From Thermodesulfovibrionia bacterium (GTDB lineage Bacteria > Nitrospirota > Thermodesulfovibrionia > Thermodesulfovibrionales > SM23-35): 64,000 nt of DNA. Location: contig JBGQLV010000002.1 in NCBI GenBank assembly GCA_041500225.1, forward strand, positions 5,616-69,615, written 5' to 3'. Of this stretch, positions 5,243 to 64,000 are shown piece after piece. The notes under the pieces are model-generated. The model saw nothing but the letters and a program-made list of their open reading frames with translations, searched no databases and was not told the origin of the DNA. Every line of letters starts with the position of its first letter. Positions within the stretch are counted from its first letter, which is position 1. Position numbers and translations under genes: made by a program.

Positions 5243-5350
5243 TTTTAAGTCTCCCTTTCAAGTATTTCCTTGAGCACAACAGCATTGTTATACTCAACAT
5301 CTTTTGCTGAAAATAAAAGAGTAATTCTCTTCTTTCTTGCCTCGGTTTTT

Positions 5351-5611: not shown

Positions 5612-5662
5612 AAGCCCTCCTTTTAATTAATAGAAGTCTAAGATTAACCCTGAACTTTTATA

Positions 5663-6169
5663 TTATGCCCAGGGAGTCCCGCCATCCACAATGCTGTGCT
5701 CCTCCCACATGAACCAGCTTCCAGAGTCTGAAAGGAAAAAGTATGTATTTGCAAATATGTCATAGTGCTGCTGTTCCTCTTTGATAAGCTTCTCAAAGAG
5801 AGCTTTTTCCTTTGGAGTTTGAACCTCATTTACTGCTTTCTTATAAAACTCAATGCTATCTTTCTCCATCTGCATGGCAATCTTCAGAGCCTCCATTTCA
5901 TCTGTTGTTGACTCAATCTTTTCAAGTAAGGCATCCTTATTTTCTTCAAAGACGTTCTTTATCTTTTCCATTGGTCTTGCAAGATCATGGACCTTTATAT
6001 CGAGCCCCTCCAATATGCACTCAAAGTTTTCAAGATGTCCCTCTTCATCTTCCATGATTGACAGGAACATTTTTTTTCCAATCGGATGTCTTGTCTTTTC
6101 TGCAGCCTCTTTATAGAAGGCTATTGCATCAGTCTCTGTCTTTATAGCTATTTTAATAGCATTCGTCAT
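5663..6169 (-). CDS. rubrerythrin-like ferritin-fold diiron protein (no rubredoxin domain)
   Basis: There are two helix pairs with E...ExxH ligand patterns (TETDAIAFY...EDEEGHLENF and QMEKDSIEFY...KEEQQHYDIF). No CxxC rubredoxin tail is present. Confidence 0.75.
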   Translation of the reverse strand: MTNAIKIAIKTETDAIAFYKEAAEKTRHPIGKKMFLSIMEDEEGHLENFECILEGLDIKVHDLARPMEKIKNVFEENKDALLEKIESTTDEMEALKIAMQMEKDSIEFYKKAVNEVQTPKEKALFEKLIKEEQQHYDIFANTYFFLSDSGSWFMWEEHSIVDGGTPWA

Positions 6170-6228
6170 AATGCCTCCTTTTATATATCTCTATAATCTG
6201 TTTTTAAAGGGCATTCCGCTCCGACTTC

Positions 6229-7476: not shown

Positions 7477-7592
7477 ATTTACCTCCTTAACAATTTCTTC
7501 TTTTTTGACTGTTTGTTTAATTCTAAACCCTTTAATTAAATTGTATCGTAAAAACTTTGTCTGTCAATAAGAATATGTGTTCCTCTAATCTC

Positions 7593-8624
7593 TCACAACT
7601 TGATGCCAGGCCAGTTTTCGATGGGATCAGTAGAGCAGATCACATGCATTCCGGCATCGGCAAATCTCTGGAATGCGGCGTTAGCCTGATCCGTATAATC
7701 TATGACTCCAGGTACAACGACCGGAGATGTACAATCTTTTAGAAGATATACTTTCTCTACCAGGCGCCTATCTTGAGCAAGAATGTCTTTTAAGAAATCG
7801 GCAATTGTCCAGGCGACACAATGACTCTTGGCTTGCCCGGCGATGATAACGGCATCAAATTGCAGGAGTTTCTTGAAAAACTTGTCGCTTTTCCGGGCAA
7901 TCGACTCTCCGTCCGGACCATACAACACTTCCGGACCAAGAACAGAGTAATGCTCGGTAAATGGCTTGTCTCCTTTGATATGAAAATCAGGCTGACTATA
8001 TCGGGCTATTCCATGGAAAAAGATCGCTTCCTCAACAGACGCAACCAGGGCATGGCCAACACCTCCCAACATGGCATGATATGGCCATATTGTTAGATCA
8101 TATTTACCACCCTCTTTTAGTTTTTTTGCATAATGCAGGAGATGCCGCTGCCCGAAATCCTCATTGATCTGAAAACTGTAACAAAGCGCAGGGTTAAATT
8201 TCCAAACGCCTTTCTGAATATCTTCTTCGAAAATGAGCGTGAAAGGCGCAGGGTGTTCTCCCTTATCATTGACCAAATAGATGGAATGAAAAATCTGCAT
8301 CGCCTGGTGTGTATCCATCGTTGGACAAATCTGAGTGATCACATCAAGATTTCGGTAAATGAATTCACACAGCCTTCTATTGTCGTCAATCGCCCCTGTG
8401 CCTGAACGTCCACCCACATATAATTCAAATCCAGGGATACAAAACGTATTTTGTACGTCTACGGCAACTAAACAGACCTTGAATACATCATTGGCAGCAG
8501 GTCTTATGTTATGCTTCTCCGCCCACTTCCTGGCCTCTTCAGACATTTCCTGATAAGAAACTTTCCGAACCTCTCCAACTTTTGCGGGGTTAAAATGAGG
8601 TGGAACAGGTAAATCATCACGCAT
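7593..8624 (-). CDS. isochorismatase-family cysteine hydrolase (nicotinamidase-like)
   Basis: It has VAVDVQNTFC (catalytic Asp context) and AGQAKSHCVAWT (nucleophile Cys context). The fold family is inferred from these motifs only. Confidence 0.65.
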   Translation of the reverse strand: MRDDLPVPPHFNPAKVGEVRKVSYQEMSEEARKWAEKHNIRPAANDVFKVCLVAVDVQNTFCIPGFELYVGGRSGTGAIDDNRRLCEFIYRNLDVITQICPTMDTHQAMQIFHSIYLVNDKGEHPAPFTLIFEEDIQKGVWKFNPALCYSFQINEDFGQRHLLHYAKKLKEGGKYDLTIWPYHAMLGGVGHALVASVEEAIFFHGIARYSQPDFHIKGDKPFTEHYSVLGPEVLYGPDGESIARKSDKFFKKLLQFDAVIIAGQAKSHCVAWTIADFLKDILAQDRRLVEKVYLLKDCTSPVVVPGVIDYTDQANAAFQRFADAGMHVICSTDPIENWPGIKL

Positions 8625-8868
8625 TATATAGTTCCTCCTTTAATCACTCCCCTGAATCTCCGACTATTTTAACCTTAATGTTGCAAAAACTTTTCTTGAT
8701 TTGGCAGGCAGATGTGTTGAAAAAGCCATATCAGCAACTCCTTACAGCCCTTCAATGTGGCCAGCCAGCCTCATGCCAAAAGACACTCACTGTGAGATTT
8801 GCAGTCATGTGAATCAGGATGAAACCTTGTTGCTTTATATGGGTTTTTCAGCACGTCTGTCTGCCTTT

Positions 8869-9360
8869 TTATGCAACGTTTGGGTTAAATTTCTCTCTCA
8901 ATGCCCTTTCAACCTCTTTAGTGACAAGACCTTTAACAGCGCCGCCATAGGACGCTATTTCCTTTACTATGCTTGAAGTTAAAAAACTGTATTCCTCACT
9001 CGGCATCATAAATACTGTCTCGATATTTGTGTTAAGCCTCCTGTTCATGTGAGCCATCTGGAGTTCATACTCAAAGTCAGAGACTGCCCTTAAACCCCGG
9101 AGAATCGCAACTCCCCTCTTTTCCCTGACATATTCGATAAGCAGGCCGTTAAATGCCTCAACCTTTACTCTTTTAAACCTCTTAATCGCAGATCTTATCA
9201 TCTTTAACCTCTCCTTAAGAGGAAAAAGAGGTTGTTTTCTATGACTTGGCGCTACTGCAATTATCACCTCGTCGAATATCATTAGACCCCTTTTAACAAG
9301 ATCAAGATGTCCGTTGGTTATAGGATCAAAAGTACCAGGATAGATCGCTATTTTTTTCAT
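8869..9360 (-). CDS. coaD: phosphopantetheine adenylyltransferase
   Basis: The N-terminus [22 protein letters not shown] carries the T/HxGH nucleotidyltransferase motif. The 163-aa length also fits. Confidence 0.95.
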
Positions 9361-9377
9361 AACTCACCCTTTCCGTC

Positions 9378-9959
9378 TTACTTATTGACGGACTTTCTGT
9401 AAAATGTCAGCATCGTATCACCATACCTGTAGCTTCTGTCTATCTTTAATTCACCTGCTGTTTCAGGCATTTCCCTCTTAAAAAAGTGTTCCACTATTAC
9501 TACTCCACTTTTATTTAAAAGTCCTTTTTCTCCAATCATTGGAAGTACTTTCTTTATCTCCTCAGAATGGTATGGCGGATCAACGAAAAAAATATCGAAA
9601 TTCTCTTTTTTAGAAGATGATTTTTCAAGGAATTCGTGCGCCCTGCTCTTAAACACCTGTGCCTTTTCTCGAAATCCAAATTCATCAGCATTCTTCTTAA
9701 TTGTAATAGCTCTTAAATCATTCGGTTCCACAAATATAGCACTGCTTGCTCCTCTTGACAATGCCTCAAACCCTACAGTTCCTGTACCTGCATAAAGATC
9801 AACAAAACTTGCATCCAAGATTCTCTCTCTTAATATATCAAAAAGCGCTTCTCTTACCTTTGAAGAAGTTGGCCTGAGTTTTTCCCTTTCCGATGTCTTT
9901 GATAATAACCTTTTTGTAGCTGTGCGTCTTCCTTTAGCAATACCACCCGAAATCCTCAT
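9378..9959 (-). CDS. rsmD: 16S rRNA (guanine966-N2)-methyltransferase RsmD family
   Basis: The SAM motif is DLYAGTGTVGFEALSRGA and the DPPY motif is FFVDPPY. It is adjacent to coaD, which is a common arrangement. Confidence 0.85.
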   Translation of the reverse strand: MRISGGIAKGRRTATKRLLSKTSEREKLRPTSSKVREALFDILRERILDASFVDLYAGTGTVGFEALSRGASSAIFVEPNDLRAITIKKNADEFGFREKAQVFKSRAHEFLEKSSSKKENFDIFFVDPPYHSEEIKKVLPMIGEKGLLNKSGVVIVEHFFKREMPETAGELKIDRSYRYGDTMLTFYRKSVNK

Positions 9960-14433: not shown

Positions 14434-16204
14434 AGAAATCGCAATAAAAGTATGCACGGGCACTGGTGGAATTGCAGCCGGTGGGAATGAGGTATTGTCA
14501 TCATTTAAGAAAGCGCTGTCATCAGCCGGCGTCAAGGCATCTTTTCATGAAAATTGCTCAATACACAAGGTTGGCTGTAGGGGTTTCTGTGCAAAGGATG
14601 TCCTTGTAGATATTATCATTGATGGTGAAAAGACAACCTATCAGTACATAAAGCCTGATATGGTAACAAGGATTATTAGTGAACATATTATTGAAGGTAA
14701 CCCTGTCACGGAGTGGGCTGTTGGAGAGGAATACCACAACTTCCACAAAAAACAGCTAAGGGTAGTACTCTCTGACTGCGGTGAAATAGACCCGGAGGAT
14801 ATCAAGTCCTATTTAGCAGTTGGTGGTTACGAAGCTGCAAAAAAGGCCCTTACCTCAATGATATCTGAAGAGATACTCAGGGTTGTAAAAGACTCTAATT
14901 TAAGGGGTAGAGGCGGCGCAGGTTTCCCCACAGGACTAAAGTGGGAACTCGCGTTAAAAGCCAAGTCTGATGTGAAATATGTCATATGCAATGGTGATGA
15001 GGGTGATCCAGGGGCCTTCATGGACAGGGCGGTAATGGAAGGAGATCCCCATTCTGTTATTGAGGGGATGATTACATGTGCAAAGGCGATCGGTTCTCAT
15101 TTCGGCTATATCTATGTAAGGGCTGAATACCCTTTAGCCGTAAAACACCTTCAGATGGCTATAGACCAATGCCATAAGGCAGGATTTCTCGGCAAAAACA
15201 TTTTCAATACAGGGTTTGACTTTGACATAAAGATATTTAAAGGTGCAGGTGCATTTGTTTGTGGCGAAGCTACAGCCCTGATGCGTTCTATTGAGGGTAA
15301 ACGCGGTATGCCAAGCCCAAAGCTATGGCACTCTGCAATTAAAGGATTATGGGATAAACCAACAGTTCTGAACAATGTTGAGACCTTTGCAAACATTCCC
15401 CGGATTATATTAAAGGGAGCCGATTGGTACAAAAACATAGGGACTGAAAAAAGCGGTGGGACTAAAGTCTTTGCGCTAACGGGAAAAGTGAAAAATACCG
15501 GTCTGATCGAAGTCCCTCTCGGCATTTCCTTGAGGGAGATAATTTATGACATCGGCGGCGGGATTGAAGGTGACAGGAAATTCAAGGCAGTACAGACAGG
15601 CGGTCCGTCAGGAGGATGCATTCCCGCAGAGTTTCTTGATACAGAAGTAGATTATGAGCCCCTCGCACTTGCTGGCTCAATTATGGGTTCAGGCGGCATG
15701 ATTGTACTTGATGAGACTGATTGTATGGTTAATACAGCAAAGTTTTTCCTCGAGTTCACCCAGTCAGAGTCATGCGGCAAATGTACTCCATGCAGGATAG
15801 GTACAAAGAGACTGCTTGAAATATTAGACAGGATCACCTCGGGGAAAGGAAAAAAGGGCGACATAGAACTTCTCCAGGAACTCAGTGAAGATATAAAAGC
15901 AACCTCATTATGTGGATTGGGCATGACAGCACCTAACCCTGTATTAAGTACTATTAAATATTTCAGAAACGAATATGAGGCACACATTATAGATAAAAAA
16001 TGCCCTGCTGCTGTATGTAAAGATTTGATCAAATACTCTATCCTTGGAGAGGTCTGTACCGGCTGTGGCGCATGTAAACGAGTATGCCCTGCTGATGCGA
16101 TTAGGGGTATAAGAAAAACTGCGCATAGAATTGACCCCGCTCTGTGTATAAAATGTGGTACATGTTTTTATGCATGTAAGTTTAAGGCGGTATCAAAATC
16201 ATGA
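14426..16204 (+). CDS. NuoF-like FMN/NAD(P)H-binding iron-sulfur subunit (FdsB/HndC-like) with C-terminal 2x[4Fe-4S] ferredoxin domain
   Basis: Motifs are GRGGAGFPTGLKW, GDEGDPGAFMDR, GAGAFVCGEATAL, ESCGKCTPCR, and C-terminal CTGCGACKRVCP...CIKCGTCFYAC. The GTG start overlaps the upstream stop. Confidence 0.85.
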   Translation: MNKEIAIKVCTGTGGIAAGGNEVLSSFKKALSSAGVKASFHENCSIHKVGCRGFCAKDVLVDIIIDGEKTTYQYIKPDMVTRIISEHIIEGNPVTEWAVGEEYHNFHKKQLRVVLSDCGEIDPEDIKSYLAVGGYEAAKKALTSMISEEILRVVKDSNLRGRGGAGFPTGLKWELALKAKSDVKYVICNGDEGDPGAFMDRAVMEGDPHSVIEGMITCAKAIGSHFGYIYVRAEYPLAVKHLQMAIDQCHKAGFLGKNIFNTGFDFDIKIFKGAGAFVCGEATALMRSIEGKRGMPSPKLWHSAIKGLWDKPTVLNNVETFANIPRIILKGADWYKNIGTEKSGGTKVFALTGKVKNTGLIEVPLGISLREIIYDIGGGIEGDRKFKAVQTGGPSGGCIPAEFLDTEVDYEPLALAGSIMGSGGMIVLDETDCMVNTAKFFLEFTQSESCGKCTPCRIGTKRLLEILDRITSGKGKKGDIELLQELSEDIKATSLCGLGMTAPNPVLSTIKYFRNEYEAHIIDKKCPAAVCKDLIKYSILGEVCTGCGACKRVCPADAIRGIRKTAHRIDPALCIKCGTCFYACKFKAVSKS

Positions 16205-16230
16205 AACTTTGCTCCGAAAATACCTTCTTA

Positions 16231-16284
16231 TGTCATGCTGAACTTGATTCAGCATCTTTTGAGACCCTGAAACGAGTTCAGGGT
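16231..16284. repeat. double-hairpin REP-like element between the NuoF-like gene and fdhA
   Basis: The first hairpin is ATGCTGAA-cttga-TTCAGCAT (16235..16255). The second is ACCCTGAA-acgag-TTCAGGGT (16264..16284). It begins with TGTCATGC, like other family members. Confidence 0.75.
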
Positions 16285-16322
16285 AACAAGGAGGGTTTAG
16301 GAATAATACATAAGAGGTTTAT

Positions 16323-19088
16323 ATGGTTACTCTGACAATAGATGGCATGAAAGTTACAGTAAGGAAGCTGTCAACAGTTCTTGATGCTGCAAAAAAACTC
16401 GAAGTTCCAATACCCACACTATGCCACCATCCTGAACTTTCCCCATTTGGAGGTTGCAGGCTATGTATAGTTGAAATTCAAGGTATGGCAAGACCTGTTA
16501 CAGCCTGCACAACTATAGCAAAAGAAGGGATGGTAGTCACAACAACAAGCCCTTATTTAGAAAAATTAAGGAAAACAACCCTTGAACTTCTCCTATCTGA
16601 CCATCCAAATGACTGTATGGTGTGTGAAAGGGCAGGTGATTGCACACTCCAGGAACTTGCATATTTCTACGATATTAGGGAGAACAGATTCGTCGGCGAA
16701 AAAAGACCTTTTATTAAAAAGGACGAAAATCCATTTGTTGAAAGAGCTATGGAAAAATGCATACTCTGCGGGCAATGTGTGCGGGTATGTGAAGAAATTC
16801 AGGGTGTTAGTGCAGTTGATTTTGCTTATAAAGGATTTAATACAAGGGTATGCGCTTCTTATGAGAAAGATCTTGATTGTGAGTTCTGCGGCCAGTGTGT
16901 TGCGGTCTGCCCTACAGGAGCACTAACAGGTAAGATGTGGGCTCATAAAGGAAGGCAGAAAGACATAGAGCAAGTTGATACTGTTTGCCCGTACTGCGGA
17001 TGCGGCTGCAACCTTACACTCCATGTAAGGCGGAACGAAATTATCCGTGTCTCCTCAAGAGAAGATACGATTAACAAAGGCTGGCTCTGCGTAAAAGGTA
17101 GATTTGGTTATGGATTCATAAACAGCGCTGAGAGGCTCACAAAACCTCTTATCAGAATAGCTCCTAAAAAGCATTCGGCATCCGGCGCTAAGCATTCAGT
17201 CAAAAACTCCAAACTCCGAACTCCAAACTCCGAACTCTTCAGGGAGGCCTCATGGGAAGAGGCGTTGGATTATATCGCAAAGAGGTTGGGAGAGATAAAA
17301 GAAAAATATGGTCCGGACTCTATTGGCGGACTTTCTTCAGCAAGATGTACGAATGAAGAAAACTACCTCTTCCAGAAATTCATGCGTGCCGCCGTTGGTA
17401 CAAATAATGTTGACCATTGTGCAAGGTATTGACACAGCGCAACGGTGGCCGGTCTGGCCACAGTATTTGGTTCAGGGGCCATGACAAATTCCGTACCAGA
17501 GATTGAAAATCATGATGTAATCTTTGTCATCGGTTCAAATACAACAGAGACACACCCTATAATCGGTCTGAAAATGAAGAAGGCTGTTAAAAATGGAGCT
17601 GAACTTATTATTGCTGACCCAAGAAAGATTGACCTTGTAAGGTTTGCCAAGATATGGCTGCAGCACAGGCCAGGCACAGACGTTGCCCTTCTGAACTCTA
17701 TTATGCATGTAATTGTAAAAGAAAATTTAACAGATAAAAAATTTATAGAGGAACGGACAGAAGGCTTTGAATCCTTCGAGCAATCCCTCGCCGAATATAC
17801 ACCAGAGGAAGGCGAAAGGATTACAGGTGTTCCAAAGGAAGATATTATAAAGGTAGCGCTTCTTTATGGAAATGCCGTACGGCCCGGTATTTATTACACC
17901 ATGGGTATTACCCAGCATTCTCATGGAACAGAAAATGTCTATGCAATAGCAAACCTGGCGTTGATGACAGGTAATCTCGGAAGAGAAAGTACAGGGGTCA
18001 ACCCTCTCAGGGGACAGAACAATGTTCAGGGTGCAACAGATATGGGTTGCATACCTGACTTCTATCCCGGTTATCAAAAGGTAAATATACCGGGTATCAA
18101 GCAAAAATTTGAAATGGCGTGGGGTGTCAAGCTCTCTGACAAGGTCGGTTTAGCAGCAACGGAAATGATTGGCGCAACCTTCAAAGGCAAGTTGAAGGCC
18201 CTGTACATAATGGGAGAGAACCCTGTTTTAAGCGACCCGGATATGAACCATACAATAAAGGCACTTGGAAAACTGGATTTCCTTGTTGTACAGGACATAT
18301 TCATGACAGAGACAGCAGAGCTTGCGGATGTGGTATTGCCTGCAGCGTGCTTCGCGGAGAAAGATGGTACATTCACAAATACTGCAAGAAGGATTCAGAG
18401 GGTCAGAAAGGCAGTGGAACCACCAGGGGAGGCAAAAGAGGATTCATGGATAATTATGGAACTTGCAAATTTACTCGGGTATAAGATGAGATATAACTAT
18501 ATTGGAGAAGTATTTCATGAAGCTGGAAAGGTATGGCCGGCAGTAGCAGGTATAACTTACGGAAGAATTGAAAAGACAGGCCTTCAGTGGCCATGTCCTA
18601 CACTCGACCACCCCGGAACTCCCTATCTCTTCAAAGGAGGGTTTCCAAGAGGTAAAGCTGCATTCAGTACTGTCAGATACAGACCATCAGAGGAACTACC
18701 TGATAATGAGTATCCATTTTTATTCTCGACAGGAAGACAGCTTTTTCAGTATCATACAGGTTCAATGACAAGAAAAATTGATGCAATCAATAAGGTATCA
18801 CCAGATGCTTATATTGAGATTCATCCCGATGATGCAAAGCAATTGGGTGTAAATGATGGGAACAAAGTAAAAGTATCATCCCGGAGGGGCTCTGTAGATG
18901 TCAGAGTACGAATTTCTGAGCGTCCAGCAAAAGGTATGACCTTCATGCCGTTTCATTTTAAGGAGGCACCAGCAAATGTGCTTACAAATACTGCGCTTGA
19001 CCCAATCTCAAAGATACCTGAGCTAAAGGTATGCGCAGTTAAGATAGAACTAATAAAAAATGGAACCTTGAATGGAAACATGAAATGA
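16323..19088 (+). CDS. fdhA: formate dehydrogenase catalytic subunit, selenocysteine-containing (TGA 17430..17432 read as Sec)
   Basis: Track ORFs 16323..17432 and 17445..19088 share one frame. They are split only by a TGA inside the conserved active-site context [18 protein letters not shown]. The N-terminus has 2Fe-2S ([15 protein letters not shown]) and 4Fe-4S motifs ([23 protein letters not shown]) and the MopB motif [14 protein letters not shown]-like hairpin follows the TGA. Confidence 0.9.
17204..17238 (+). repeat. heptanucleotide tandem repeat (RAACTCC x5) inside fdhA
   Basis: The sequence reads aaactcc aaactcc gaactcc aaactcc gaactc(t). It encodes part of the low-complexity segment [12 protein letters not shown] in a linker. 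Confidence 0.8.
17430..17465 (+). promoter_or_regulatory. bacterial SECIS-like recoding hairpin downstream of the UGA codon
   Basis: The stem GTGGCC (17445..17450) pairs with GGCCAC (17456..17461) around the apical loop GGTCT. It begins about 13 nt after the TGA. The register and the GGUCU loop resemble the E. coli fdhF SECIS as I recall it. Confidence 0.75.
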
Positions 19089-55832: not shown

Positions 55833-56069
55833 TCAAGGCCTAACACTATTCTCCTGATTTCCTTTAATAATAATTTTATGCCCCTCAAATTCAACAAGTT
55901 GCCCTTTGCGTACTTTATAGCGCTTACGTAATTCCACATTACCATTAACCCTGACACGACCGTCAGCGATCACAGTTTTTGCTATACCTCCGCTATCGCA
56001 TAGCCCCATGACTTTCAAAGGGTTATTTAATTCGATAAATTCATTGTTTCCCAAATTAAACTCTTTCAT
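55833..56069 (-). CDS. S4-domain RNA-binding protein (YbcJ-like)
   Basis: The 78-aa ORF has IELNNPLKVMGLCDSGGIAKTVIADGRVRVNG...RKGQLVEF, typical of small S4-fold proteins. Confidence 0.7.
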   Translation of the reverse strand: MKEFNLGNNEFIELNNPLKVMGLCDSGGIAKTVIADGRVRVNGNVELRKRYKVRKGQLVEFEGHKIIIKGNQENSVRP

Positions 56070-56378
56070 CGATTATCCCTGCAATATTATTCGGCACACC
56101 TCTCGTTACTTTTTTAAACTAACGATTACCACTTGTGCCTGGCACAATTATATCATGGTTGATAGATGCGGAAGAAAGTGAGTGAAAAAGTGTTTGCTCG
56201 CCGTCGAGGTACCATTTTACTTGTTTCACCTGCTAATAGAGAGTTACGGCACATGACGAAATATGATAATTTTCATTTGAACTATTGTGTTTCCATGAGC
56301 ACTAAGTAGCATTGTAAGGAAGTAACTAAATATTGTGACCTGAACCTACAGCAGCCAACTATTTGCAATAAACAAGTC

Positions 56379-56412
56379 TGACCCCCTTCCTCCCCTGACC
56401 CCCTTCCTCCCC
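56379..56412. repeat. tandem direct repeat TGACCCCCTTCCTCCCC x2
   Basis: Two exact adjacent 17-nt copies lie at 56379..56395 and 56396..56412, upstream of the promoter-like element. Confidence 0.85.
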
Positions 56413-56457
56413 TTCTCAAATATTTTACTGTTAGCAATTTTACATTTGTATTTTCCC

Positions 56458-56486
56458 TTGACAAAGGGGGATATCGCGTGAATAAT
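56458..56486 (+). promoter_or_regulatory. sigma-70-like promoter (TTGACA-17 nt-AATAAT) upstream of the cas relics / cas operon
   Basis: TTGACA lies at 56458..56463. A 17-nt spacer ending in TG follows, then AATAAT at 56481..56486. The whole element lies 18 nt before the cas6-fragment ATG. Confidence 0.4.
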
Positions 56487-56503
56487 CTATCTTGTGTGAA
56501 CGT

Positions 56504-56653
56504 ATGAAAACACATCCTGTCACATTAGGTGTTTTTCAATTTACCATAAACCCCCTCGAACCTCTTATTCTACCCCCATATAAAGGCGCTACCCTGCGAG
56601 GCGGGTTCGGATATGCCTTTAATTGTGTTGTCTGTGCGATCAAGGACAAATAA
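56504..56653 (+). pseudogene. cas6: truncated cas6-like (RAMP endoribonuclease) 5' fragment, 49 codons
   Basis: The translation is MKTHPVTLGVFQFTINPLEPLILPPYKGATLRGGFGYAFNCVVCAIKDK*. The segment PPYKGATLRGGFGYAF matches the N-terminal signature of Cas6-family RAMP proteins as I recall it. It stops far short of a full Cas6 (over 200 aa). Confidence 0.55.
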
Positions 56654-56869
56654 TATCCCCTACTAATTTTGGTAGGTTATTTTACAGATACCGGCAGGAT
56701 AGACTTTGGCAACTTGTGAAATCCGTGTACATATCTCACTTAAACCTAAAAATCGTCACCCCGGGGATTTTTAAAAGTATTTCAGAGAATACGTCGAATA
56801 ATTCCTGTTGAGAGATACAGAGATTTGGTCAGATTGGTTGCTAAGGGAGCAGCCTAAGATTTAAAGGGG

Positions 56870-57117
56870 ATGAATTGCAAAAGTTTTATGCCCATAGCAT
56901 TGACGGAAGGCCGGTTGATGACTGGCACCGGCTTGTCGAAGACTCGTAGAGAGGAGCACGAGGGGACTGTCCCAGATTTACGGACGGAGCGAAGCGGAGT
57001 CGTAGAATCGGGACTGTCCCCGGCCAAGAGGGACGTGGCAAATTTCGCGGTAGAATTCGGTTGCGGGGAGTGGGGACGAATAGCGGGGCTGTGGCATGAT
57101 TTGGGGAAGGGAGATAA
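56870..57117 (+). pseudogene. cas3: degenerate cas3 HD-domain 5' fragment (frameshifted, with stop), abutting the intact cas3
   Basis: One frame gives QKFYAHSIDGRPVDDWHRLVEDS* (56878..56949). The +1 frame continues EEHEG...VANFAVEFGCGEWGRIAGLWHDLGK up to 57109. This parallels the intact Cas3 N-terminus FYADG...AFGCEAWGALLGDWHDLGK. An 11-nt direct repeat GGGACTGTCCC lies at 56963..56973 and 57010..57020. Confidence 0.65.
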
Positions 57118-59325
57118 ATGGATTTTTATGCTGATGGAAACAAGAGTCAGAAGCTGATAACGCATATTGATGGCGTTAGGAATAATGCATCTTTATTTTC
57201 CAAAGCTTTTGGGTGTGAAGCTTGGGGCGCATTATTAGGTGACTGGCATGACTTGGGAAAGTTCATGGAGGCGTTCCAGAGATATATGCTTGAAGATGAA
57301 CAGCGTATTGAGCATGCCGTTGTGGGAGGGCGGTACGCAACAGATCAATTTGATGACCCTCTTCGTAAATTGGCCTTACAGCTTACAATTACTTGTCACC
57401 ATACCGGATTGCAAAATAGCGAAGCTCTCAGAGAACGATTAGTTAATGCGGCACAATTGGTACGCGATGCTATCAAAAATGCGCCGAATGATTTGTTGGA
57501 TAGAAAACTTCCTGAGTGGCCTGAGTGGCTGATTCCTCCAGATGTTACCGCTGAAGAAAAGAAAATAAATGAGTGGAAGAGAAGCTTGGAATTTTGGATA
57601 CGAATGCTTCATTCCTGTCTGGTTGATGCTGATTGGCTTGATGCTGAAAAACGGGACTCAGATGCACTGAAAAGACCCGATTTTCCTTTGATTGATGAAC
57701 TTAGAGATGAACTGGATGGATATATTGATGTAAAAGTTTCTGATGCGAAAAAAAATAATTGGACACCAGTCAATGCTCAAAGAAAAAATGTGTTGGATGC
57801 TTGTAGAGAGTCTGCAATAACCCAAACAGGATATTTTTCATTAACGGTTCCAACAGGTGGCGGGAAAACACTTTCCGGGATGTCCTTTGCTTTAAATCAT
57901 GCTGTAGAAAATAAAATGAAACGTGTGATTGTTGTTATCCCGTACACAAGCATTATCGAACAAAATGCATCCGTTTACGCAGAGGTTTTTGGGCGCGAAA
58001 ACGTAATTGAGCATCACTCAAATATTGAACCTGAAAAGGATACAGAAAGAAACCGTCTGGCATCAGAAAATTGGGATGCGCCTATCATTGTCACAACGAA
58101 TGTTCAATTTTTCGAATCGTTGTACGCAAACAAAAATACCAGACTTCGGAAACTTCATAACATTTCCAGAAGTGTCATTATTTTAGACGAAGTGCAATCA
58201 CTGCCTCCGGGGTTGTTGTATCCGATATTGGATGCAATACAGGAATTACGAGAACATTACGGTTGTTCAGTCGTTCTTTCTACAGCAACTCAGCCAGCCT
58301 TAAAAAAGCGCAAATCATTTATGTGCGGATTGGATACGGTGAGAGAAATTATTCCGGCCGCAATGAAGCTGTCGCAAAATTTAGCTCGTGTGAATATTGA
58401 ATGGGAAACAGGTAGCGCTATAGAATATCCAGATATTTCGGAACGTATCCTAAAAGAAAATATGCAACGTGTTTTGGTGGTCACACATAAGCGTAAGGAT
58501 GCCCGAGTGCTTGCCGGTTTGCTACCTGAGAATACTTATCATCTTTCGGCATCAATGTGTCCTTTTCACCGGAAGGATACTCTTAATAAAGTAAAAGAGG
58601 AGTTGTTGAAAAATGAATCCTCGACCGTTAGGGTAGTAAGTACGCAATTAATCGAGGCGGGGGTAGATATTGATTTCCCTGTCGTTTTCAGGGCATTAGC
58701 CGGTTTGGACAGTATTTCACAGACGGCAGGGCGTTGTAACCGTGAAGGCAAAGATGTTAATGGAGGTCGTCTAATTGTCTTTCGCGCACCAACAGAACCT
58801 CCGGCGGGAGTTTTGCGCTTGGGAAAGGGTATTACGGAAAGTTTACTTAATTCCAGTGAATCTGACGGCGTTTTGCGGGGCGATGATGGTTCTCTGGATT
58901 TAACGTCTCCTGCAATTTATGATACATACTTTCGTCTGTTTTATTCTGGTGTTCAACTGGATGGGGCAGGGGTTCAAAATGCCCGCGCAAGTCTGGATTT
59001 CCCTGAAGTCGCAAAGCGTTTCCGTATAATTGACAGCGTTGCATATCCTGTCGTTGTTCCTTACAAAGACGCATACGACAAGCTGGATGCCGTCCGTGCT
59101 AAATTCAAACCATCGCGGGATGACTTCAGATCACTTCAACCTTTTATTGTTCAAATATATTTTCAGGAGTTTCAGGCGCTGAATAACGTAGGCGCACTTG
59201 GATCTATACATGAGAAAGCGTTCTTTTATTTAACGCCGCCATATGAACGGCTTTATGATGAACGATTTGGTTTGGTTGTGTCTGAAGAAAATCTTTTTCC
59301 TAATTATTCAAAATTCAATGTTTAA
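57118..59325 (+). CDS. cas3: CRISPR-associated helicase/nuclease Cas3 (HD + SF2 helicase), type I-C context
   Basis: It has the HD motif WHDLGK and the helicase motif I PTGGGKT. The DEAH-like motif is ILDEVQ, followed by STATQP. The C-terminal SQTAGRCNREG is also present. Confidence 0.9.
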   Translation: MDFYADGNKSQKLITHIDGVRNNASLFSKAFGCEAWGALLGDWHDLGKFMEAFQRYMLEDEQRIEHAVVGGRYATDQFDDPLRKLALQLTITCHHTGLQNSEALRERLVNAAQLVRDAIKNAPNDLLDRKLPEWPEWLIPPDVTAEEKKINEWKRSLEFWIRMLHSCLVDADWLDAEKRDSDALKRPDFPLIDELRDELDGYIDVKVSDAKKNNWTPVNAQRKNVLDACRESAITQTGYFSLTVPTGGGKTLSGMSFALNHAVENKMKRVIVVIPYTSIIEQNASVYAEVFGRENVIEHHSNIEPEKDTERNRLASENWDAPIIVTTNVQFFESLYANKNTRLRKLHNISRSVIILDEVQSLPPGLLYPILDAIQELREHYGCSVVLSTATQPALKKRKSFMCGLDTVREIIPAAMKLSQNLARVNIEWETGSAIEYPDISERILKENMQRVLVVTHKRKDARVLAGLLPENTYHLSASMCPFHRKDTLNKVKEELLKNESSTVRVVSTQLIEAGVDIDFPVVFRALAGLDSISQTAGRCNREGKDVNGGRLIVFRAPTEPPAGVLRLGKGITESLLNSSESDGVLRGDDGSLDLTSPAIYDTYFRLFYSGVQLDGAGVQNARASLDFPEVAKRFRIIDSVAYPVVVPYKDAYDKLDAVRAKFKPSRDDFRSLQPFIVQIYFQEFQALNNVGALGSIHEKAFFYLTPPYERLYDERFGLVVSEENLFPNYSKFNV

Positions 59326-59343
59326 GCCTAAAAAGGAGGAACT

Positions 59344-60069
59344 ATGAAAAAACGGAGAGGCCCGACATTAAGCCTTCGGGCAAAAGGCCCGCTTGCTATA
59401 TTTACGCGGCCTGAACTTAAAACAGAACGGGTGAGTTATGAGGTTCCAACCCCTTCATCTGTTCGCGGAATGTTTGAAGCTGTTTGCTGGAAACCCGCCA
59501 TTCAATGGCATGTGGAGCGCATCTATGTGTTCAATGAAATATCCTTTACTGCGATGAAGCGAAATGAGCTGAACACCAAAAGCAGTGTACCTTCAAGGCA
59601 GATGATGGACTCCGGTATGCGGGAATTCACATATGGGATATATGGTATAAATGCTGATGATCCTGACAGCAGGGCGCAACGAAATACGGTGGCTTTGCGG
59701 AATGTGGATTATCAGTTCGAAGCTTTTTTTACGCTTACCGAGAGAGCTGGGGCAGATGATAATATCTATAAATTTGTTGATATGTTTACCCGACGGGTGG
59801 AAAATGGACAGCATTTTCACCAGCCCTATTTCGGTTGCCGGGAGTGTATTGCTGAAATTCTTCCTCCCATAGAAAAGCCGGAAGAGCGGACAATTTCCAT
59901 ATCCAAAGAACTCGGAATTATGCTTTGGGATATTGAGTTCGGAACTGGTGAGGAACGGCAAAACACGTCTCTTTTTTTCAATGCAAAAATGGAAAATGGA
60001 AAAATGGAAATCCCATTGCATCCAATCGGTCGGGAGGAGGTGTCGTATGATATTGAAAGCGCTTTATGA
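59344..60069 (+). CDS. cas5: Cas5, subtype I-C (Cas5c/Cas5d)
   Basis: The 241-aa RAMP begins [39 protein letters not shown], typical of Cas5d. AGGAGG lies upstream. It sits between cas3 and cas8c as in I-C operons. Confidence 0.85.
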   Translation: MKKRRGPTLSLRAKGPLAIFTRPELKTERVSYEVPTPSSVRGMFEAVCWKPAIQWHVERIYVFNEISFTAMKRNELNTKSSVPSRQMMDSGMREFTYGIYGINADDPDSRAQRNTVALRNVDYQFEAFFTLTERAGADDNIYKFVDMFTRRVENGQHFHQPYFGCRECIAEILPPIEKPEERTISISKELGIMLWDIEFGTGEERQNTSLFFNAKMENGKMEIPLHPIGREEVSYDIESAL

Positions 60070-62038
60070 TTTAGCACAACGGGGAGAGCTTGTTCCGGAT
60101 TCTGATTTTGAGATCAAGCCGGTCGCTTGGGTCATTCGAGTGGGTGATAGTGGACGTTTTTTGGGTATTGAACCGTTGAAACAAGCAGAAAAGCTTCCTG
60201 AAGGGTCAAAGAAAAAACCAAGAATGTTAGGCACGCCAAAATTAGTTCCTAAGCGATTACCCAGTCGTTCAGGGAAACACCCTCAGGCTGAATTTTTTGT
60301 CGATAACCCGTTGTATGTTTTGGGCAAATCAATTCCTGCCGAGAAATATAAACCTTTGGTTTGTAAGACACGCCAAGGTATGTTTGCCGATAGAATAAAG
60401 CCATGCGCAGAAGAATCAGGTGATAATGCGGTCAAGGATTGCACATTGTTTTTACAAAAACATGCACGTGGTGAATTAGAGGTTGCAATACCTTCAGAGA
60501 TGAAAGGAAATGACCTGATTGCCTTTTCTTATCAAACGGAAGAGTCATTTGTCCATAAGAGGCCGGCTGTTATTGAATATTGGAGAAAAATTAATGCGGA
60601 TAGTCTTAGAGCGCAAGAGGGTTCCGTGTGCCTCATTACTGGAGAATTCTGCACACCTGCCAAAAAGCATAAAAAATTAAAAAATGTACCTCAAAAGAAA
60701 ATCAGCGACATAGCTTTAGCGCCTTGTAACCAACCTGCCTTTGAAAGCTATGGCTGGAAGGAAGCTGCCAATGCTGTGATTGGCGAGGAATCGTCCGATT
60801 TTGCAATGACAGCTCTAAACCGTCTTTTGCATCCCAATCCACCCGATCCGCAAGATCCGAATCAGACCTTATCAAAGCAAAATGTACATTTAAGCTCAGA
60901 TACGGTGGTTTGTTATTGGACACGGAATAAGAGTGCGTTGTCCGATTCTTTTGGTTTGGCCATTGAGGTGGATGAAGAAAAGGTCGAAGCGAAGCCAGCG
61001 CAGGTTGCGGAGATGTATAAAAGCCTTTGGAAAGGTATCCCCTATAAATTGGACAAGCCCGATGAATTTTACTCATTGGTTCTGTCTGGTGGCCAGGGAC
61101 GGGCAACCGTACGGGATTGGATAGAGTCGAACACACAGCATGTGGTGGATAGTCTGGCACAATATTTTGCAGACTTGAGAATTGAGCGCTGTTGCCCTTC
61201 GCCTAAAAAAGGAAGACATCCTGAAAGCTTTTCGCTGCCTTTATTGCTTGAGTCGCTTGCTGATCCGAAAGACCGCCGAAAAGAAGGTATCCCTTCTGCG
61301 ATCGGCACACAGTTCTACCGGGCATCAATTGACAAAAAACTATTGTTTCCACAGCCGGCATTTAGTCGGGCAATTTTGCGTTATAGAGCTGAATTGGGGA
61401 AGGAAAGCGACGAAAAAAAGGGCTGGTTCGTAAAGAATTGGAACGATGCCCGAGCGGCAATTATTAAAGCGTATCTAAATCGAAAACATCGGAAAGAATC
61501 CAAACAAGAGGAGGTATCAGAAAAAATGAATCCAACCTGTACAGATAAAGGATATTTACTTGGACAGCTTATGTCCGTATTGGAAAAACTACAGACAGCG
61601 GCCCTGGGGAGTGTTAATGCGAGTATTGTTGATCGTTATTTTGCTGGGGCCTCTGCGTCTCCCAAAAGTGTATTTGGAAGTTTACTTAGAAACGCACGGC
61701 ATCACGCCCGCAAAGCTAAAGATGAATCAAGAAACAAAGGACAAATATTTAATTTGGAGCGGTTAATTGACCAAATTTGCAGCCAGTTTGATGTTTCTTT
61801 GAAGAAAACAGAAGATCCAAAATCCGTCTATGAGAATGGATTCCCTGCGTATCTTTCCCAAGAGCAACAGGGAATGTTTGTTTTGGGATACCATCAAATG
61901 CGCAAATGGCTGTGGATGACACGCGAAGAGCGGGATATCTGGAATGACGAACATTCCGATGCTTCCCGTGCATATTTGTGGGAAAAGAAGGAAAATGATT
62001 TAGAAAATTCAACTGAAGAAAAAGGAGAAAACCAATGA
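60047..62038 (+). CDS. cas8c: Cas8c (Csd1) large subunit, type I-C
   Basis: ATG 60047 follows GGGAGGAGG. The N-terminus MILKALYDLAQR is typical of Csd1. The track ORF from 59933 is an upstream extension that overlaps cas5. Confidence 0.85.
   Translation: MILKALYDLAQRGELVPDSDFEIKPVAWVIRVGDSGRFLGIEPLKQAEKLPEGSKKKPRMLGTPKLVPKRLPSRSGKHPQAEFFVDNPLYVLGKSIPAEKYKPLVCKTRQGMFADRIKPCAEESGDNAVKDCTLFLQKHARGELEVAIPSEMKGNDLIAFSYQTEESFVHKRPAVIEYWRKINADSLRAQEGSVCLITGEFCTPAKKHKKLKNVPQKKISDIALAPCNQPAFESYGWKEAANAVIGEESSDFAMTALNRLLHPNPPDPQDPNQTLSKQNVHLSSDTVVCYWTRNKSALSDSFGLAIEVDEEKVEAKPAQVAEMYKSLWKGIPYKLDKPDEFYSLVLSGGQGRATVRDWIESNTQHVVDSLAQYFADLRIERCCPSPKKGRHPESFSLPLLLESLADPKDRRKEGIPSAIGTQFYRASIDKKLLFPQPAFSRAILRYRAELGKESDEKKGWFVKNWNDARAAIIKAYLNRKHRKESKQEEVSEKMNPTCTDKGYLLGQLMSVLEKLQTAALGSVNASIVDRYFAGASASPKSVFGSLLRNARHHARKAKDESRNKGQIFNLERLIDQICSQFDVSLKKTEDPKSVYENGFPAYLSQEQQGMFVLGYHQMRKWLWMTREERDIWNDEHSDASRAYLWEKKENDLENSTEEKGENQ
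61526..62038 (+). CDS. cas11: probable internally translated small subunit Cas11c (in-frame within the cas8c 3' end)
   Basis: An in-frame ATG at 61526 is preceded by GAGGAGG (61508..61514). The product begins MNPTCTDKGYLLGQLMSVLEKLQ. Type I-C systems are reported to make Cas11 from an internal start in cas8c. Confidence 0.5.
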   Translation: MNPTCTDKGYLLGQLMSVLEKLQTAALGSVNASIVDRYFAGASASPKSVFGSLLRNARHHARKAKDESRNKGQIFNLERLIDQICSQFDVSLKKTEDPKSVYENGFPAYLSQEQQGMFVLGYHQMRKWLWMTREERDIWNDEHSDASRAYLWEKKENDLENSTEEKGENQ

Positions 62039-63165
62039 AAGAAGCTATCAAAAATCGTTATGAATTTGTTTATCTGTTTGATGTAAATAAAGGAAATCCA
62101 AATGGGGACCCAGATGCAGGGAATGCTCCTCGTCAGGACTATGAAACGGGGAAAGGATTAGTTACGGATGTTTGCCTGAAACGGAAGATTAGAAACTATG
62201 TTGATATCACAAAAAACAACCAGGCGCCTTATGAAATTCATGTGAGAGAAGGCGCTTTTCTTTCCGAGCATCATAAGCGCGCACATTTGGCGATTGAAAA
62301 TGAAACGATCCAGATGATTGTTCCCGATGATTTGGTAGCCGAGTTTAAAGCATTTGAAGCATATCCGGATGGAATCGTTTTTTCTGCTAAAGGCGAGCGT
62401 CCATGCTTGGTCTTGTCTTTATCTGGACTGGAAGAAACAGAGAAAGATGTGAAAAAACTGAAAGAGAAAGAGAAGAAAGAAGATGCCGGGAACAAGAAAC
62501 TGATATCGCCTGCAGCAAAAGCAAAGCTCCGTGAACTATTCATTGATTCAAAAGAGAAAAAAGCGGCGCAGTGGATGTGCAAAAACTTTTTTGACGTTCG
62601 TACATTCGGTGCGGTTATGTCTACCGGCGATATGCGATGTGGGCAGATTAGAGGGCCTGTTCAATTTGGATTTGCGGAAAGCATTGATTCAATTGTGGGG
62701 AAAGAAATATCAATGTCGCGGACTGCTGCAGTAAGTATAGATGACCCTGATCAAAAAGGGTTAGGTGCTCGAAAATCAATTGTTCCTTATGGGTTGTATC
62801 GGGTTCATGGATATATTTCTGCACATCTATCAAGTCAGACTAACTTTTCAGAGGATGATTTGGAAATGTTGTGGTCTGCGCTGATGAATATGTTTGATCA
62901 AGATCCCGCCGCTGCTCGAACTGGGATGCACGCTCAGAAGTTGATCGTTTTTAAACATGTTGGAACTGATAAAGATGAAAAGCAAAAAAAAGAACAAGCA
63001 AAATTAGGATGTGCACCTGCGCATAAATTATTTGAAATGGTAAATGTTGAATTAATCAATAAAGACAAGCCTCCACGTTCTTTTGCTGATTATAAAAAGA
63101 TTGACTTTGCGGATATTAAATCTAAGGCAATAGTGTTGGGCGTTGAAGCAATTGAAATGCTGTAG
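62035..63165 (+). CDS. cas7: Cas7, subtype I-C (Csd2)
   Basis: It begins IKNRYEFVYLFDVNKGNPNGDPDAGN. It also has VTDVCLKRKIRNY and CKNFFDVRTFGAVMSTG...IRGPVQFGFAESID, hallmarks of Csd2. At 376 aa it is longer than I expect. Confidence 0.9.
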   Translation: MKEAIKNRYEFVYLFDVNKGNPNGDPDAGNAPRQDYETGKGLVTDVCLKRKIRNYVDITKNNQAPYEIHVREGAFLSEHHKRAHLAIENETIQMIVPDDLVAEFKAFEAYPDGIVFSAKGERPCLVLSLSGLEETEKDVKKLKEKEKKEDAGNKKLISPAAKAKLRELFIDSKEKKAAQWMCKNFFDVRTFGAVMSTGDMRCGQIRGPVQFGFAESIDSIVGKEISMSRTAAVSIDDPDQKGLGARKSIVPYGLYRVHGYISAHLSSQTNFSEDDLEMLWSALMNMFDQDPAAARTGMHAQKLIVFKHVGTDKDEKQKKEQAKLGCAPAHKLFEMVNVELINKDKPPRSFADYKKIDFADIKSKAIVLGVEAIEML

Positions 63166-63299
63166 TCATGAAGGAATTTGGCACTTCCACAAAGACCGAA
63201 CTGAAGCTGATAGGCGTGGCATGTCTACTGGAAGGAGCTCGCGCTGGCTAATACCGGTGAGGCGGGTATGCGAGGACATGACAGAAAGGAGGTTTAAAC

Positions 63300-64000
63300 T
63301 TGGAATCAAATATAGCCGTATTTAAGGGCAAAAAGATTCGTAAGACCCTATACAACAAAGAATGGTGGTTTTCTGTAGTAGATGTTGTTGGAGTGCTCAC
63401 TGACAGCCCTGATGCTGGCGCATATTGGAGAAAGCTAAAACAACGGTTAAAAGAGGAAGGAAGCGAAGTCGTGACATTTTGTCACGGGTTGAAGCTGCCT
63501 GCTCCTGACGGGAAACTGAGAGAGACTGACTGTGCCAATACTGAGGGTATATTCCGACTTATCCAATCCATCCCTTCTCCCAAGGCAGAGCCTTTTAAAC
63601 GCTGGCTTGCAAAAGTCGGCTATGAGCGCGTACAGGAAATAGAAAATCCGGAGCTTGCCACAAAAAGGACGCGGATGCTTTATAAGCTCAAAGGTTATTC
63701 CGATGATTGGATTGAAAAGCGTATGCGCGGCATCGCCATCCGGGAAGAATTGACTGATGAATGGCAGAAGCGGGGCGCGGAGGAAGAAAAGAACTATGAA
63801 ATTTTAACCGCGGAAATATCAAAGGCAACTTTTGGCATTACTCCCGGAGAATACAAAAAGCTCAAAGGACTTAAGCGGCAGAATCTGCGCGACCATATGG
63901 ATGATTTCGAGCTGATTTTTACGATGCTTGGAGAGCGCGCTACCACGGAAATTCATCGCACAGAAGACTCTGAGGGTATGAAAAAGCTTAAAACGGACGC
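63300..64000 (+). CDS. Bro-N domain protein, DinD/antirepressor-like (3' end beyond window)
   Basis: A TTG at 63300 lies 7 nt after AAGGAGG (63286..63292), and the frame stays open to the window edge. It is absent from the ORF track because there is no stop. The translation reads ...WWFSVVDVVGVLTDS...KLRETDCANTEGIFRLIQSIPSPKAEPFKRWLAKVGYERVQEIENPE..., which matches the widespread Bro-N/DNA-damage-inducible-protein-D-like family. Confidence 0.8.
   Translation, partial: MESNIAVFKGKKIRKTLYNKEWWFSVVDVVGVLTDSPDAGAYWRKLKQRLKEEGSEVVTFCHGLKLPAPDGKLRETDCANTEGIFRLIQSIPSPKAEPFKRWLAKVGYERVQEIENPELATKRTRMLYKLKGYSDDWIEKRMRGIAIREELTDEWQKRGAEEEKNYEILTAEISKATFGITPGEYKKLKGLKRQNLRDHMDDFELIFTMLGERATTEIHRTEDSEGMKKLKTD

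Follow-up and report, generated by a model that had tools for sequence, protein, structure and literature searches.

CRISPR-cas loci are known to exchange their effector modules in situ while neighbouring 'attractor' genes (cas6, cas1, cas2 and cas4) stay fixed (reviewed by Koonin and Makarova 2019, PMC6452270). Effector-module exchange beside a fixed adaptation module has been deduced from phylogenies, and its physical boundaries and mechanism are poorly defined. The present analysis concerns positions 56458-57117 of a 64,000-nucleotide (nt) stretch of DNA from a Thermodesulfovibrionia bacterium (contig JBGQLV010000002.1), hereafter the window. This interval lies directly upstream of a type I-C cas3-cas5c-cas8c-cas7c operon. 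The locus is an instance of in situ effector-module exchange: as in the described cases, the adaptation side (a Bro-N gene, cas4, cas1, cas2 and the array) is conserved while the interference genes are replaced, a cas6 is found at the fixed edge, here as a stub only, and replacement occurs between variants of the same subtype and, in the case of the cas6 stub, also across types. It differs in that no intact attractor gene stands at its left edge, which is formed by a dead 5' stub of cas3, cut at the HD motif, and in that this stub recurs before many modules, sometimes in tandem with small cargo. A full-text literature search found no description of HD-cut cas3 5' stubs as a recurrent left boundary, nor of tandem stubs with cargo. 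We favour, with a probability of about 0.7, the reading that positions 56458-57117 hold dead gene ends from successive replacements at one CRISPR-cas locus, which now form the left flank of an exchangeable type I-C module.

Exchange of the interference module between conserved flanks

The operon downstream of the interval is of type I-C, with cas3, cas5c, cas8c and cas7c present and no cas6, matches to TIGR01876, TIGR01863 and TIGR02589 all above cut-off, and a repeat ending in ATTGAAAC. Beyond position 64000 the right flank was read from locus L001 (loci are referred to by L numbers and proteins by P numbers); the contigs that share the cysK context of the window end before it. In L001, the Bro-N gene (16183-17004) is followed by cas4-cas1-cas2 and an array of 27 repeats (GTCGCCCCTCGCACAGGGGCGTGGATTGAAAC).

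The exchange is seen in the comparison with the metagenome locus L051. This locus shares 96.5% nucleotide identity with window positions 56444-56927, a stretch running from the promoter-like site through the cas6 stub, hairpin and PIN-toxin tail into the beginning of the cas3 stub, and 89% with positions 57044-57108. The homology resumes at window position 63285, 15 nt before the start of the Bro-N gene, at 90% nucleotide identity, and the Bro-N proteins are 92% identical. Between these flanks (89-96% nucleotide identity), L051 carries a different type I-C cas3-cas5c-cas8c-cas7 set, with an amino-acid identity of 25-39% to that of the window.

A genome scan with the intact Cas3 returned proteins with 83-95% identity in metagenome-assembled genomes labelled Desulfobacterales, Desulfobacula, Omnitrophota, Smithella, Syntrophorhabdus and Gammaproteobacteria. 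The members of this clade, which come from several phyla, are 82-94% identical at the nucleotide level over a stretch that opens immediately 5' of the cas3 ATG and closes at the cas7 stop, with Bro-N, cas4, cas1 and cas2 at only 64-73%. Nearly every clade locus has its own, different and more or less decayed cas3 N-terminal stub directly before the ATG. Because of the swap in L051 and the restriction of the clade identity to cas3-cas7, the cas3-to-cas7 block is interpreted as a discrete unit which moves between loci, with a stub at its left edge. Its boundaries lie 8 nt upstream of cas3 and about 120 nt past cas7. At the left junction, the homology to L051 ends at 57108, and that to the clade loci L020-L030 begins between 57056 and 57116. 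No direct repeats beyond chance were found bounding the swapped block.

The intact Cas3 is present on eight contigs from independent assemblies, and the structure upstream of it is 99.9-100% identical in all of them, so the structure of the interval is not an assembly accident. Window positions 55863-64000 are 99.9% identical to L001, L002 and L007, where they lie behind Fic/HTH_17 genes and not behind cysE-cysK. L009, L010 and L014 share the cysK-S4 side with 99.5% identity up to window position 56237 and have no cas genes. The relics and the cassette occur together in at least two upstream contexts.

Layout of the left flank

The interval contains, in this order, a promoter-like site, a cas6 stub, a hairpin, a PIN-toxin tail, a cas3 stub and an 8-nt linker (Table 1). 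A sequence-only reading of the window had listed the promoter, the 49-codon open reading frame (ORF), the split cas3 N-terminus, the 11-nt repeats and the 8-nt gap, all of which are confirmed in the sequence. The promoter and hairpin calls are consensus matches only.

Table 1 Features of the left flank, the type I-C module and the right flank (positions in the window; HMM, hidden Markov model)
Feature	Position	Strand	Basis or remark
Promoter-like sigma-70 site, TTGACA-17-AATAAT	56458..56486	+	11/12 consensus matches, predicted from sequence; -35 TTGACA 56458-56463, spacer 17 nt, -10 AATAAT 56481-56486
cas6 stub, first 49 codons of a PF10040/AF_1859-type Cas6, then TAA	56504..56653	+	HMM and HMMER matches
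Terminator-like hairpin CCTACTAATTTTGGTAGG with T-rich tail	56659..56686	+	Adjoins the cas6 truncation point
PIN-toxin 3' tail (...HLNLKIVTPGIF...), third relic	~56698..56811	+	BLASTP and nucleotide homology
cas3 stub part A, LQKFYAHSIDGRPVDDWHRLVEDS, then TAG	56875..56949	+	Reading frame 56875-56946; 92-96% nt identity to the same part of full-length and truncated lineage members
16-nt insertion TCGAAGACTCGTAGAG	56936..56951	+	Comparison with L031 and L051
60-nt imperfect palindrome with both GGGACTGTCCC copies, in-frame insertion	56962..57021	+	DNA fold z=-3.8
cas3 stub part B, VANFAVEFGCGEWGRIAGLWHDLGK, ends at HD motif	57035..57109	+	Other frame than part A; TIGR01596 cas3_HD, E=7.8e-4
8-nt linker GGAGATAA	57110..57117	+	With the preceding GGGGAAG, predicted ribosome-binding region of cas3; left junction of swapped block
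cas3 (exchangeable type I-C interference module)	57118-59325	+	Cas3c model, 655 bits
cas5c	59344-60069	+	HMM above curated cut-off
cas8c	60047-62038	+	HMM above curated cut-off
cas7c	62035-63165	+	HMM above curated cut-off
Conserved right flank	63285..64000	+	L051 homology resumes; Bro-N from TTG 63300, runs off the window

The cas3 stub and its lesions

About 55 codons are left of the cas3 stub, interrupted twice. The HMM check bears out its identification from the letters as a second Cas3 HD N-terminus: the concatenated parts match the Cas3c model with E=4e-7 and are colinear with its positions 12-57, and part B matches the cas3_HD model (Table 1). The motifs YAHS...EH...GLWHDLGK can be followed through the stub. 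While type I-C Cas3 (Cas3c) combines an HD domain (TIGR01596) with a helicase (TIGR01587), the stub has neither a complete HD domain nor the DEAD/DEAH helicase: its sequence ends at the HD motif, with no further motif of that domain. With the N-terminus of the 740-amino-acid (aa) type I-C Cas3 of L080 it shares 62% identity (E=4e-22), and with the adjacent intact Cas3 42%, with a 10-residue gap (E=3e-9). The intact relatives of the stub are 733-744 aa long and head cas5c-cas8c-cas7c operons; in L080 and L047, cas3 is followed by cas5c, cas8c and cas7c, all above the NCBIfam cut-offs. The sequence-only reading had assigned the cas3 relic to a locus of a different subtype, and here it fails: the best match is Cas3c, and these comparisons place the stub in another lineage of type I-C, not in another subtype. 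The intact Cas3 itself begins with MDFYADG (window 57118-57135), with Asp in place of the near-invariant His of the HD-domain YAHS, as in all clade members (L020-L030).

The 16-nt insertion introduces a TAG stop and a frameshift (LVEDS*), so that the frame is broken at 56947. The two GGGACTGTCCC 11-mers, at 56963 and 57010, are the arms of the palindrome, and no others are present in the 64 kb. As RNA, the palindrome folds with z=-2.3, against -3.8 as DNA. It is missing from L051, which has 46 nt at this place compared with 116 nt in the window. The stubs of L031, L032, L087, L105, L113 and L125 contain it too, and the frames of the proteins P0001, P0010 and P0011 read through it. A Y1 (IS200-like) transposase gene lies directly 3' of the palindrome in L105 and L120, that is, in 2 of about 9 palindrome-bearing loci. 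REP-like (repetitive extragenic palindromic) elements are associated with RAYT/IS200-type Y1 transposases. The palindrome of the stub resembles them as an approximately 60-nt, GC-rich imperfect palindrome inserted in a gene, with Y1 genes adjacent in the two loci mentioned; it differs from them in being confined to cas3 stubs across all 125 fetched loci, with a single occurrence in the window and no dispersed copies in either set. A REP-like origin is suggested.

The LVEDS* lesion is common to the window, L093, L104, L119 and one of the copies in L050. The loci which share the stub lesions differ downstream, where three unrelated cas3 lineages, a cas5, an ORF6N gene, a Y1 transposase gene or a type III-like set is found. 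Because the LVEDS* lesion and the palindrome are shared by loci with different downstream genes, the comparison indicates that the cas3 stub was already dead when the modules changed. In the window, the stubs are probably without protein function.

Recurrence of cas3 stubs

When metagenomes were scanned with an alignment of stub sequences, 80 loci were obtained, in which the Cas3 of the stub family is full-length (18 loci), runs off the contig end (7) or is truncated (55). A word-indexed search had returned short proteins only, as if the stub had no full-length parent; this is overturned by the 18 full-length Cas3, at least 8 of which belong to the parent lineage of the stub. Even 'parent' full-length cas3 genes are preceded by a decayed stub. 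In all 55 truncated loci, the frame ends within about 30 nt of the GLWHDLGKYS codons, and in none of the 80 is it truncated between about residue 100 and residue 700. The lone longer frame (293 aa, in L060) is a stub fused in frame to cas5c.

The gene which follows the stub is of at least eight kinds among the truncated loci. At least seven cas3 lineages (several of them confirmed as type I-C), cas5-first operons, toxin-antitoxin pairs, ORF6N or Bro-N genes, Y1 transposases and restriction-modification genes are found at this position. The next start codon lies within about 60 nt of the stub, often 8 nt past a Lys codon or overlapping the stub stop (ATGA, TAAATG). We estimate the number of distinct stub junctions at about 15, with L070, L078 and L079 counted as one. 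Two or more matches to the stub consensus were obtained in 22 loci. About a dozen of these have two true stub copies, with 0.6-1.6 kb of cargo between them, for example MNT/HEPN (a nucleotidyltransferase/HEPN toxin-antitoxin pair) or ORF6N, while in the rest the second match is the adjacent intact cas3.

Two other origins of the stubs were considered and set aside. Deletions started by an array spacer targeting the cas3 stub find no support in the comparison of 130 spacers from the fetched arrays with all stubs, in which none matched (0/130). Carriage of the stub by phages is unsupported, as no cas3 stub was found on IMG/VR viral contigs.

Several loci show further arrangements around the stub. 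The full-length Cas3 of L074 (13-2184) resembles the stub lineage over its first ~45 residues, while its remainder belongs to another family (as in L089 and L101), and the protein is apparently a chimera, fused in frame by a crossover adjoining the HD motif. In L024, an insertion of 5 kb (4886-9912) with genes for a KilA-N-like protein, an AAA ATPase, a SEC-C motif protein and Bro-N is flanked by a duplicated cas3-stub start, KYYAHSLKGRPKEE. ORF6N, Bro-N or KilA-N genes recur beside the cas3 stubs (L031, L104, L087, L048, L062, L079, L083 and L024), and within the type I-C operon a Bro-N domain gene separates cas7 from cas4. In L057, L060, L062, L063, L067 and L118, the stub is followed by an operon in the order cas5-cas8-cas7-cas3, whose Cas5, Cas8 and Cas7 score below the type I-C cut-offs. 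These operons may represent a divergent I-C-like variant with cas3 last.

The cas6 stub and the PIN-toxin tail

The first relic is an ORF of 49 codons (ATG 56504, TAA 56651-56653; product MKTHP...PPYKGATLRGGFGYAFNCVVCAIKDK). Its identity as a Cas6 N-terminus, which had been proposed from the letters, was upheld by the HMM check, as the PADLOC Cas6 profile matches with E=3.6e-9 (residues 7-46 on positions 4-43 of 296). An exhaustive HMMER search of 1.84 billion proteins with the 49-aa sequence (E<=1e-3) gave 157 matches, all at protein N-termini, the best of which is P0019 (70% identity, E=2e-12); the 328-aa Cas6 of L125 matches with E=5e-16. The stub has the motif LPxYKGSTLRGGFGxAF...VVC, in which it is 60-70% identical to full-length members, and thus shares with PF10040/AF_1859 Cas6 the N-terminal strand-loop region. 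Other searches were less sensitive to this piece. Pfam and NCBIfam gave no match to the 49-aa ORF, and Pfam is blind to the N-terminal piece because PF10040 covers only the C-terminal half of the full-length relatives (238-386 aa). The word-indexed protein search with the same ORF gave no candidates, a PDB sequence search found nothing, and tblastn against plasmids returned weak matches only, to annotated cas6 N-termini. A full member has the PF10040 domain in its C-terminal half and a length of ~240-340 aa, but the stub stops at codon 49, lacks the Cys-rich segment as well as the PF10040 domain that would follow, and has no continuation in any frame. As judged from this predicted product, the cas6 stub cannot be an active Cas6.

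The family of the cas6 fragment heads a type III-like set in L125, where the gene is followed by those for a Cas_NE0113 protein and RAMP-like proteins, and for this reason the fragment is foreign to type I-C, in agreement with the sequence-only reading. Protein P0020 and loci L041-L043 have the same cas6 break as the window (…VVCAIKDKEC|SLLILVGYF…). L041-L043 also keep the hairpin, as CCCTACTAATTTTGGTAGG with a T-run, with 80% nucleotide identity over window positions 56558-56707, and the hairpin is conserved with the cas6 stub in L042, L060 and L095. In L041-L043, the cas6 stub lies 5' of a different type I operon, with split cas3'/cas3'', a DevR-type cas7 and Cas6b. The cas6 truncation is old. 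The L042 operon also contains an ORF6N, Bro-N or KilA-N gene, and at positions 1470-1600 of that locus a 23-residue N-terminal stub of the Cas3' helicase (MHNINLKIGPRFVRQNKDEFRPF; compare L117 from position 835) precedes the complete cas3'; 5' stubs of the first gene therefore extend beyond the HD-type cas3.

The ~220 nt between the cas6 and cas3 fragments, a gap in the sequence-only reading, turned out on comparison with other loci to hold a third relic, the end of a PIN-toxin gene whose frame ends at 56811. BLASTP aligns it with residues 126-149 of the 158-aa PIN protein of L125 (E=3e-5), which is encoded by a full gene and matches PF13470 (PIN_3). Nucleotide homology extends to L105, L070, L125 and L110, all of which have a more complete gene end; in L070 and L105 this longer end lies in front of cas3 stubs. 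What is present in the window is a C-terminal tail of ~25 residues only, without the PIN fold and its catalytic acidic residues.

Proposed formation of the left flank and alternative explanations

According to the reading which we favour, the interval would have been built up by successive replacements. Its first element would be the promoter with the 49 initial codons of a truncated PF10040-type cas6 and the conserved hairpin behind them, its second the last ~25-35 codons of a PIN-toxin gene, and its third the first ~55 codons of a type I-C cas3 of another lineage, cut just after the HD motif. The 16-nt and palindromic insertions would have hit the cas3 stub after its truncation. The present cas3-cas5c-cas8c-cas7c block (57118 to ~63284) would then have been placed between the stub flank and the flank formed by Bro-N, cas4-cas1-cas2 and the array, by recombination with a left crossover in the cas3 stub and a right one at or beyond Bro-N. 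The stub may thus serve as a portable left homology arm. Its tail, which codes for the HD motif, would be kept because no other stretch is as conserved among type I-C cas3 genes, and because its purine-rich end (GGGGAAG GGAG) may supply the putative ribosome-binding region of the incoming cas3. Defence-island hotspots show turnover of cargo between conserved flanks, and in homology-facilitated illegitimate recombination one flank is anchored by homology while the other joint is illegitimate. The locus is similar to such hotspots in having variable cargo between short conserved flanks, and its flanks may be joined in this same mixed way; it is different in that its flank is a pseudogene fragment of ~165 nt and not a core gene.

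A number of points weigh against successive replacement. The identities of the relics, their sharing between loci and the sharp limits of the block are given by the data, but recombination as the mechanism is deduced from comparison alone. The 64-73% flank identity of the distant clade makes a poor substrate for homologous recombination, and while a homologous crossover in the stub would account for the spread of a stub-to-module junction that already exists, it leaves unexplained how the ~15 junction types first arose within the same ~30 nt. Of the 55 truncated stubs, ~40 keep an open frame, so that a function is possible. Finally, the 80 loci were found with patterns derived from the stub and come mostly from a few sediment and groundwater studies, and the counts are neither independent nor unbiased.

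A further step, which we put forward only tentatively, is that the cas3 stub serves as an active 'landing pad' on the left side, used by a widespread system which exchanges type I-C modules and small cassettes (toxin-antitoxin pairs, ORF6N/Bro-N genes), with a mechanistic hot spot in the HD codons. The G-rich HD stretch would then be the sole sequence common to divergent cas3 genes, a site of breakage or crossover and a ready ribosome-binding site. In that case, communities would have a single fixed point for swapping Cascade-Cas3 sets, with their spacer arrays and adaptation genes retained.

The stub could instead be a functional upstream ORF or leader, translated so that an incoming operon without a promoter is expressed by translational coupling to the resident cas3 signals, in which case selection for expression would keep the stubs short, with ends close to the new start codon. 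The stop and start codons overlap as ATGA in L070, L078, L079 and L093 and adjoin as TAAATG in L077 and L083, three junction classes have the new ATG 8 nt past the Lys codon, and the proportion of open frames (~40/55) and the lack of another promoter-like site on the + strand before cas3 fit this as well. The stub of the window, however, is interrupted by a stop, a frameshift and the palindrome, ~15 of the 55 stubs elsewhere are visibly disrupted or 5'-truncated, and coupling would leave unexplained why the break lies at the HD codons and not elsewhere in the first gene. We consider this explanation rather unlikely.

Still less likely is targeted insertion, by which cassettes carrying a copy of the cas3 5' end would integrate as circles by a single crossover into cas3, duplicating the stub and sometimes silencing cas3, with toxin-antitoxin genes, ORF6N/Bro-N genes, Y1 transposases or whole cas modules as cargo. 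The two-copy loci described above would be accounted for in this way, as would L031, with ORF6N between the stubs, and L032, where a stub with Phd/ParE has a second, palindrome-bearing stub piece behind the cassette. L052 and L064 show the order stub, cargo and full-length cas3, the 5-kb insertion in L024 lies between duplicated stub starts, and Y1 transposases follow the stubs in L105, L120, L083 and L085. Apart from the Y1 transposases of these four loci, however, no integrase or other recombinase consistently accompanies the cassettes. The junctions are not at one exact nucleotide, no stub was seen on the IMG/VR viral contigs, and the window has a single stub copy.

The sequence-only reading had proposed that an older locus of another subtype, beginning with cas6 and/or cas3, was overwritten once, in this genome, by an incoming type I-C cassette. 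Parts of it hold: the relics are genuine, the cas6 family is that of the type III-like set in L125 and foreign to type I-C, an earlier cas3 was indeed replaced, and the GC content of the stub is 0.61 against ~0.42 around it. The rest does not, since the cas3 relic is itself of type I-C origin and the event is not local to this genome. A second genomic context holds the relics together with the cassette at 99.9% identity, so that at least two upstream contexts are known, and the comparison with other loci located the relic block before other type I-C modules, at 96.5% identity before that of L051, and the same truncated cas6 before the Cas6b-containing type I operon of L041-L043. The orphan CRISPR arrays which might have been left by such an older locus were sought, and none is present in the window. 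As a single local event, the displacement is already contradicted, and we regard it overall as improbable. If the 5' end of the resident cas3 had been duplicated in tandem and the upstream copy had then decayed, the adjacency of two paralogous N-termini (E=3e-9) would be explained, but this possibility is next to negligible given the 42% identity and 10-residue gap to the adjacent cas3 against 62% to another lineage, the very different composition and the lack of any FYADG-type stub in the clade.

The locus and its relatives give nucleotide-level boundaries for the type I-C interference module, and a cas3 stub ending at the HD motif is a recognisable scar which could be searched for in order to count and date swaps. 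If the clustering of breaks at the HD codons is mechanistic, hosts could change their Cascade-Cas3 sets, for example to escape anti-CRISPR proteins, while keeping their spacer memory. The stubs also call for caution in annotation, as short ORFs named 'Cas3' or 'hypothetical' 5' of cas3 may be pseudogene stubs.

Composition, repeats and the upstream junction

The GC content has its maximum (0.61) at 56925-57074, compared with ~0.42 in the surroundings. Between 55700 and 57400, a scan for sigma-70-like sites on both strands found 5 against 3.9 expected from shuffled sequences, so that the scan alone is not significant; the site at 56458-56486 is the only one on the + strand there, and it lies inside the block that is 96.5% identical in L051. 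The sequence-only reading had suggested that the type I-C operon may now be transcribed from this inherited promoter; the lack of a second sigma-70-like site on the + strand before cas3 would fit this, whereas the conserved terminator-like hairpin right behind the cas6 stub would not. In the same region, Rfam gave no match at E<=1. A crRNA-like mini-array (of the CreR/crlRNA type) is not indicated either, as the type I-C repeat aligns to 56201-57120 with a best local score of 8, where shuffled sequences give a mean of 8.3, and no site in the window agrees with the repeat at 20 or more of 32 positions.

Just 5' of the promoter-like site, the 17-mer CTGACCCCCTTCCTCCC occurs in two perfect tandem copies (window 56378-56413), and L051 has another tandem pair at this position (AAGAACGTCCCACAAAGCTTTTCCC twice). 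The 25-nt motif GGGGTCAGACTTGTTTATTGCAA is present at window 56358-56385 and at L001 20893-20919 and 20999-21025, so that an inverted repeat of 23-27 nt flanks the stubs, the operon and the array. The possibility that these repeats are the ends of a transposon or island is weakened by the dispersal of the motif and by the missing left copy in L051. The motif is also found in unrelated intergenic regions (L008 at 13292, L012 at 5167, L093 twice, and L044), and it is probably not the end of an element but a regulatory or repeat motif present in dispersed copies.

A small S4-domain gene and the sequence upstream of it form a junction zone (window 55833-56285, L009 11386-12233, L051 1394-2339). 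In the cysK context the S4 product has 78 aa, and where the gene lies behind Fic/HTH_17 it has 69. An insertion of 615 nt in L009 is flanked by an 87%-identical duplicate of window 56054-56285, and in L051 a VapBC-like pair is inserted in this zone.

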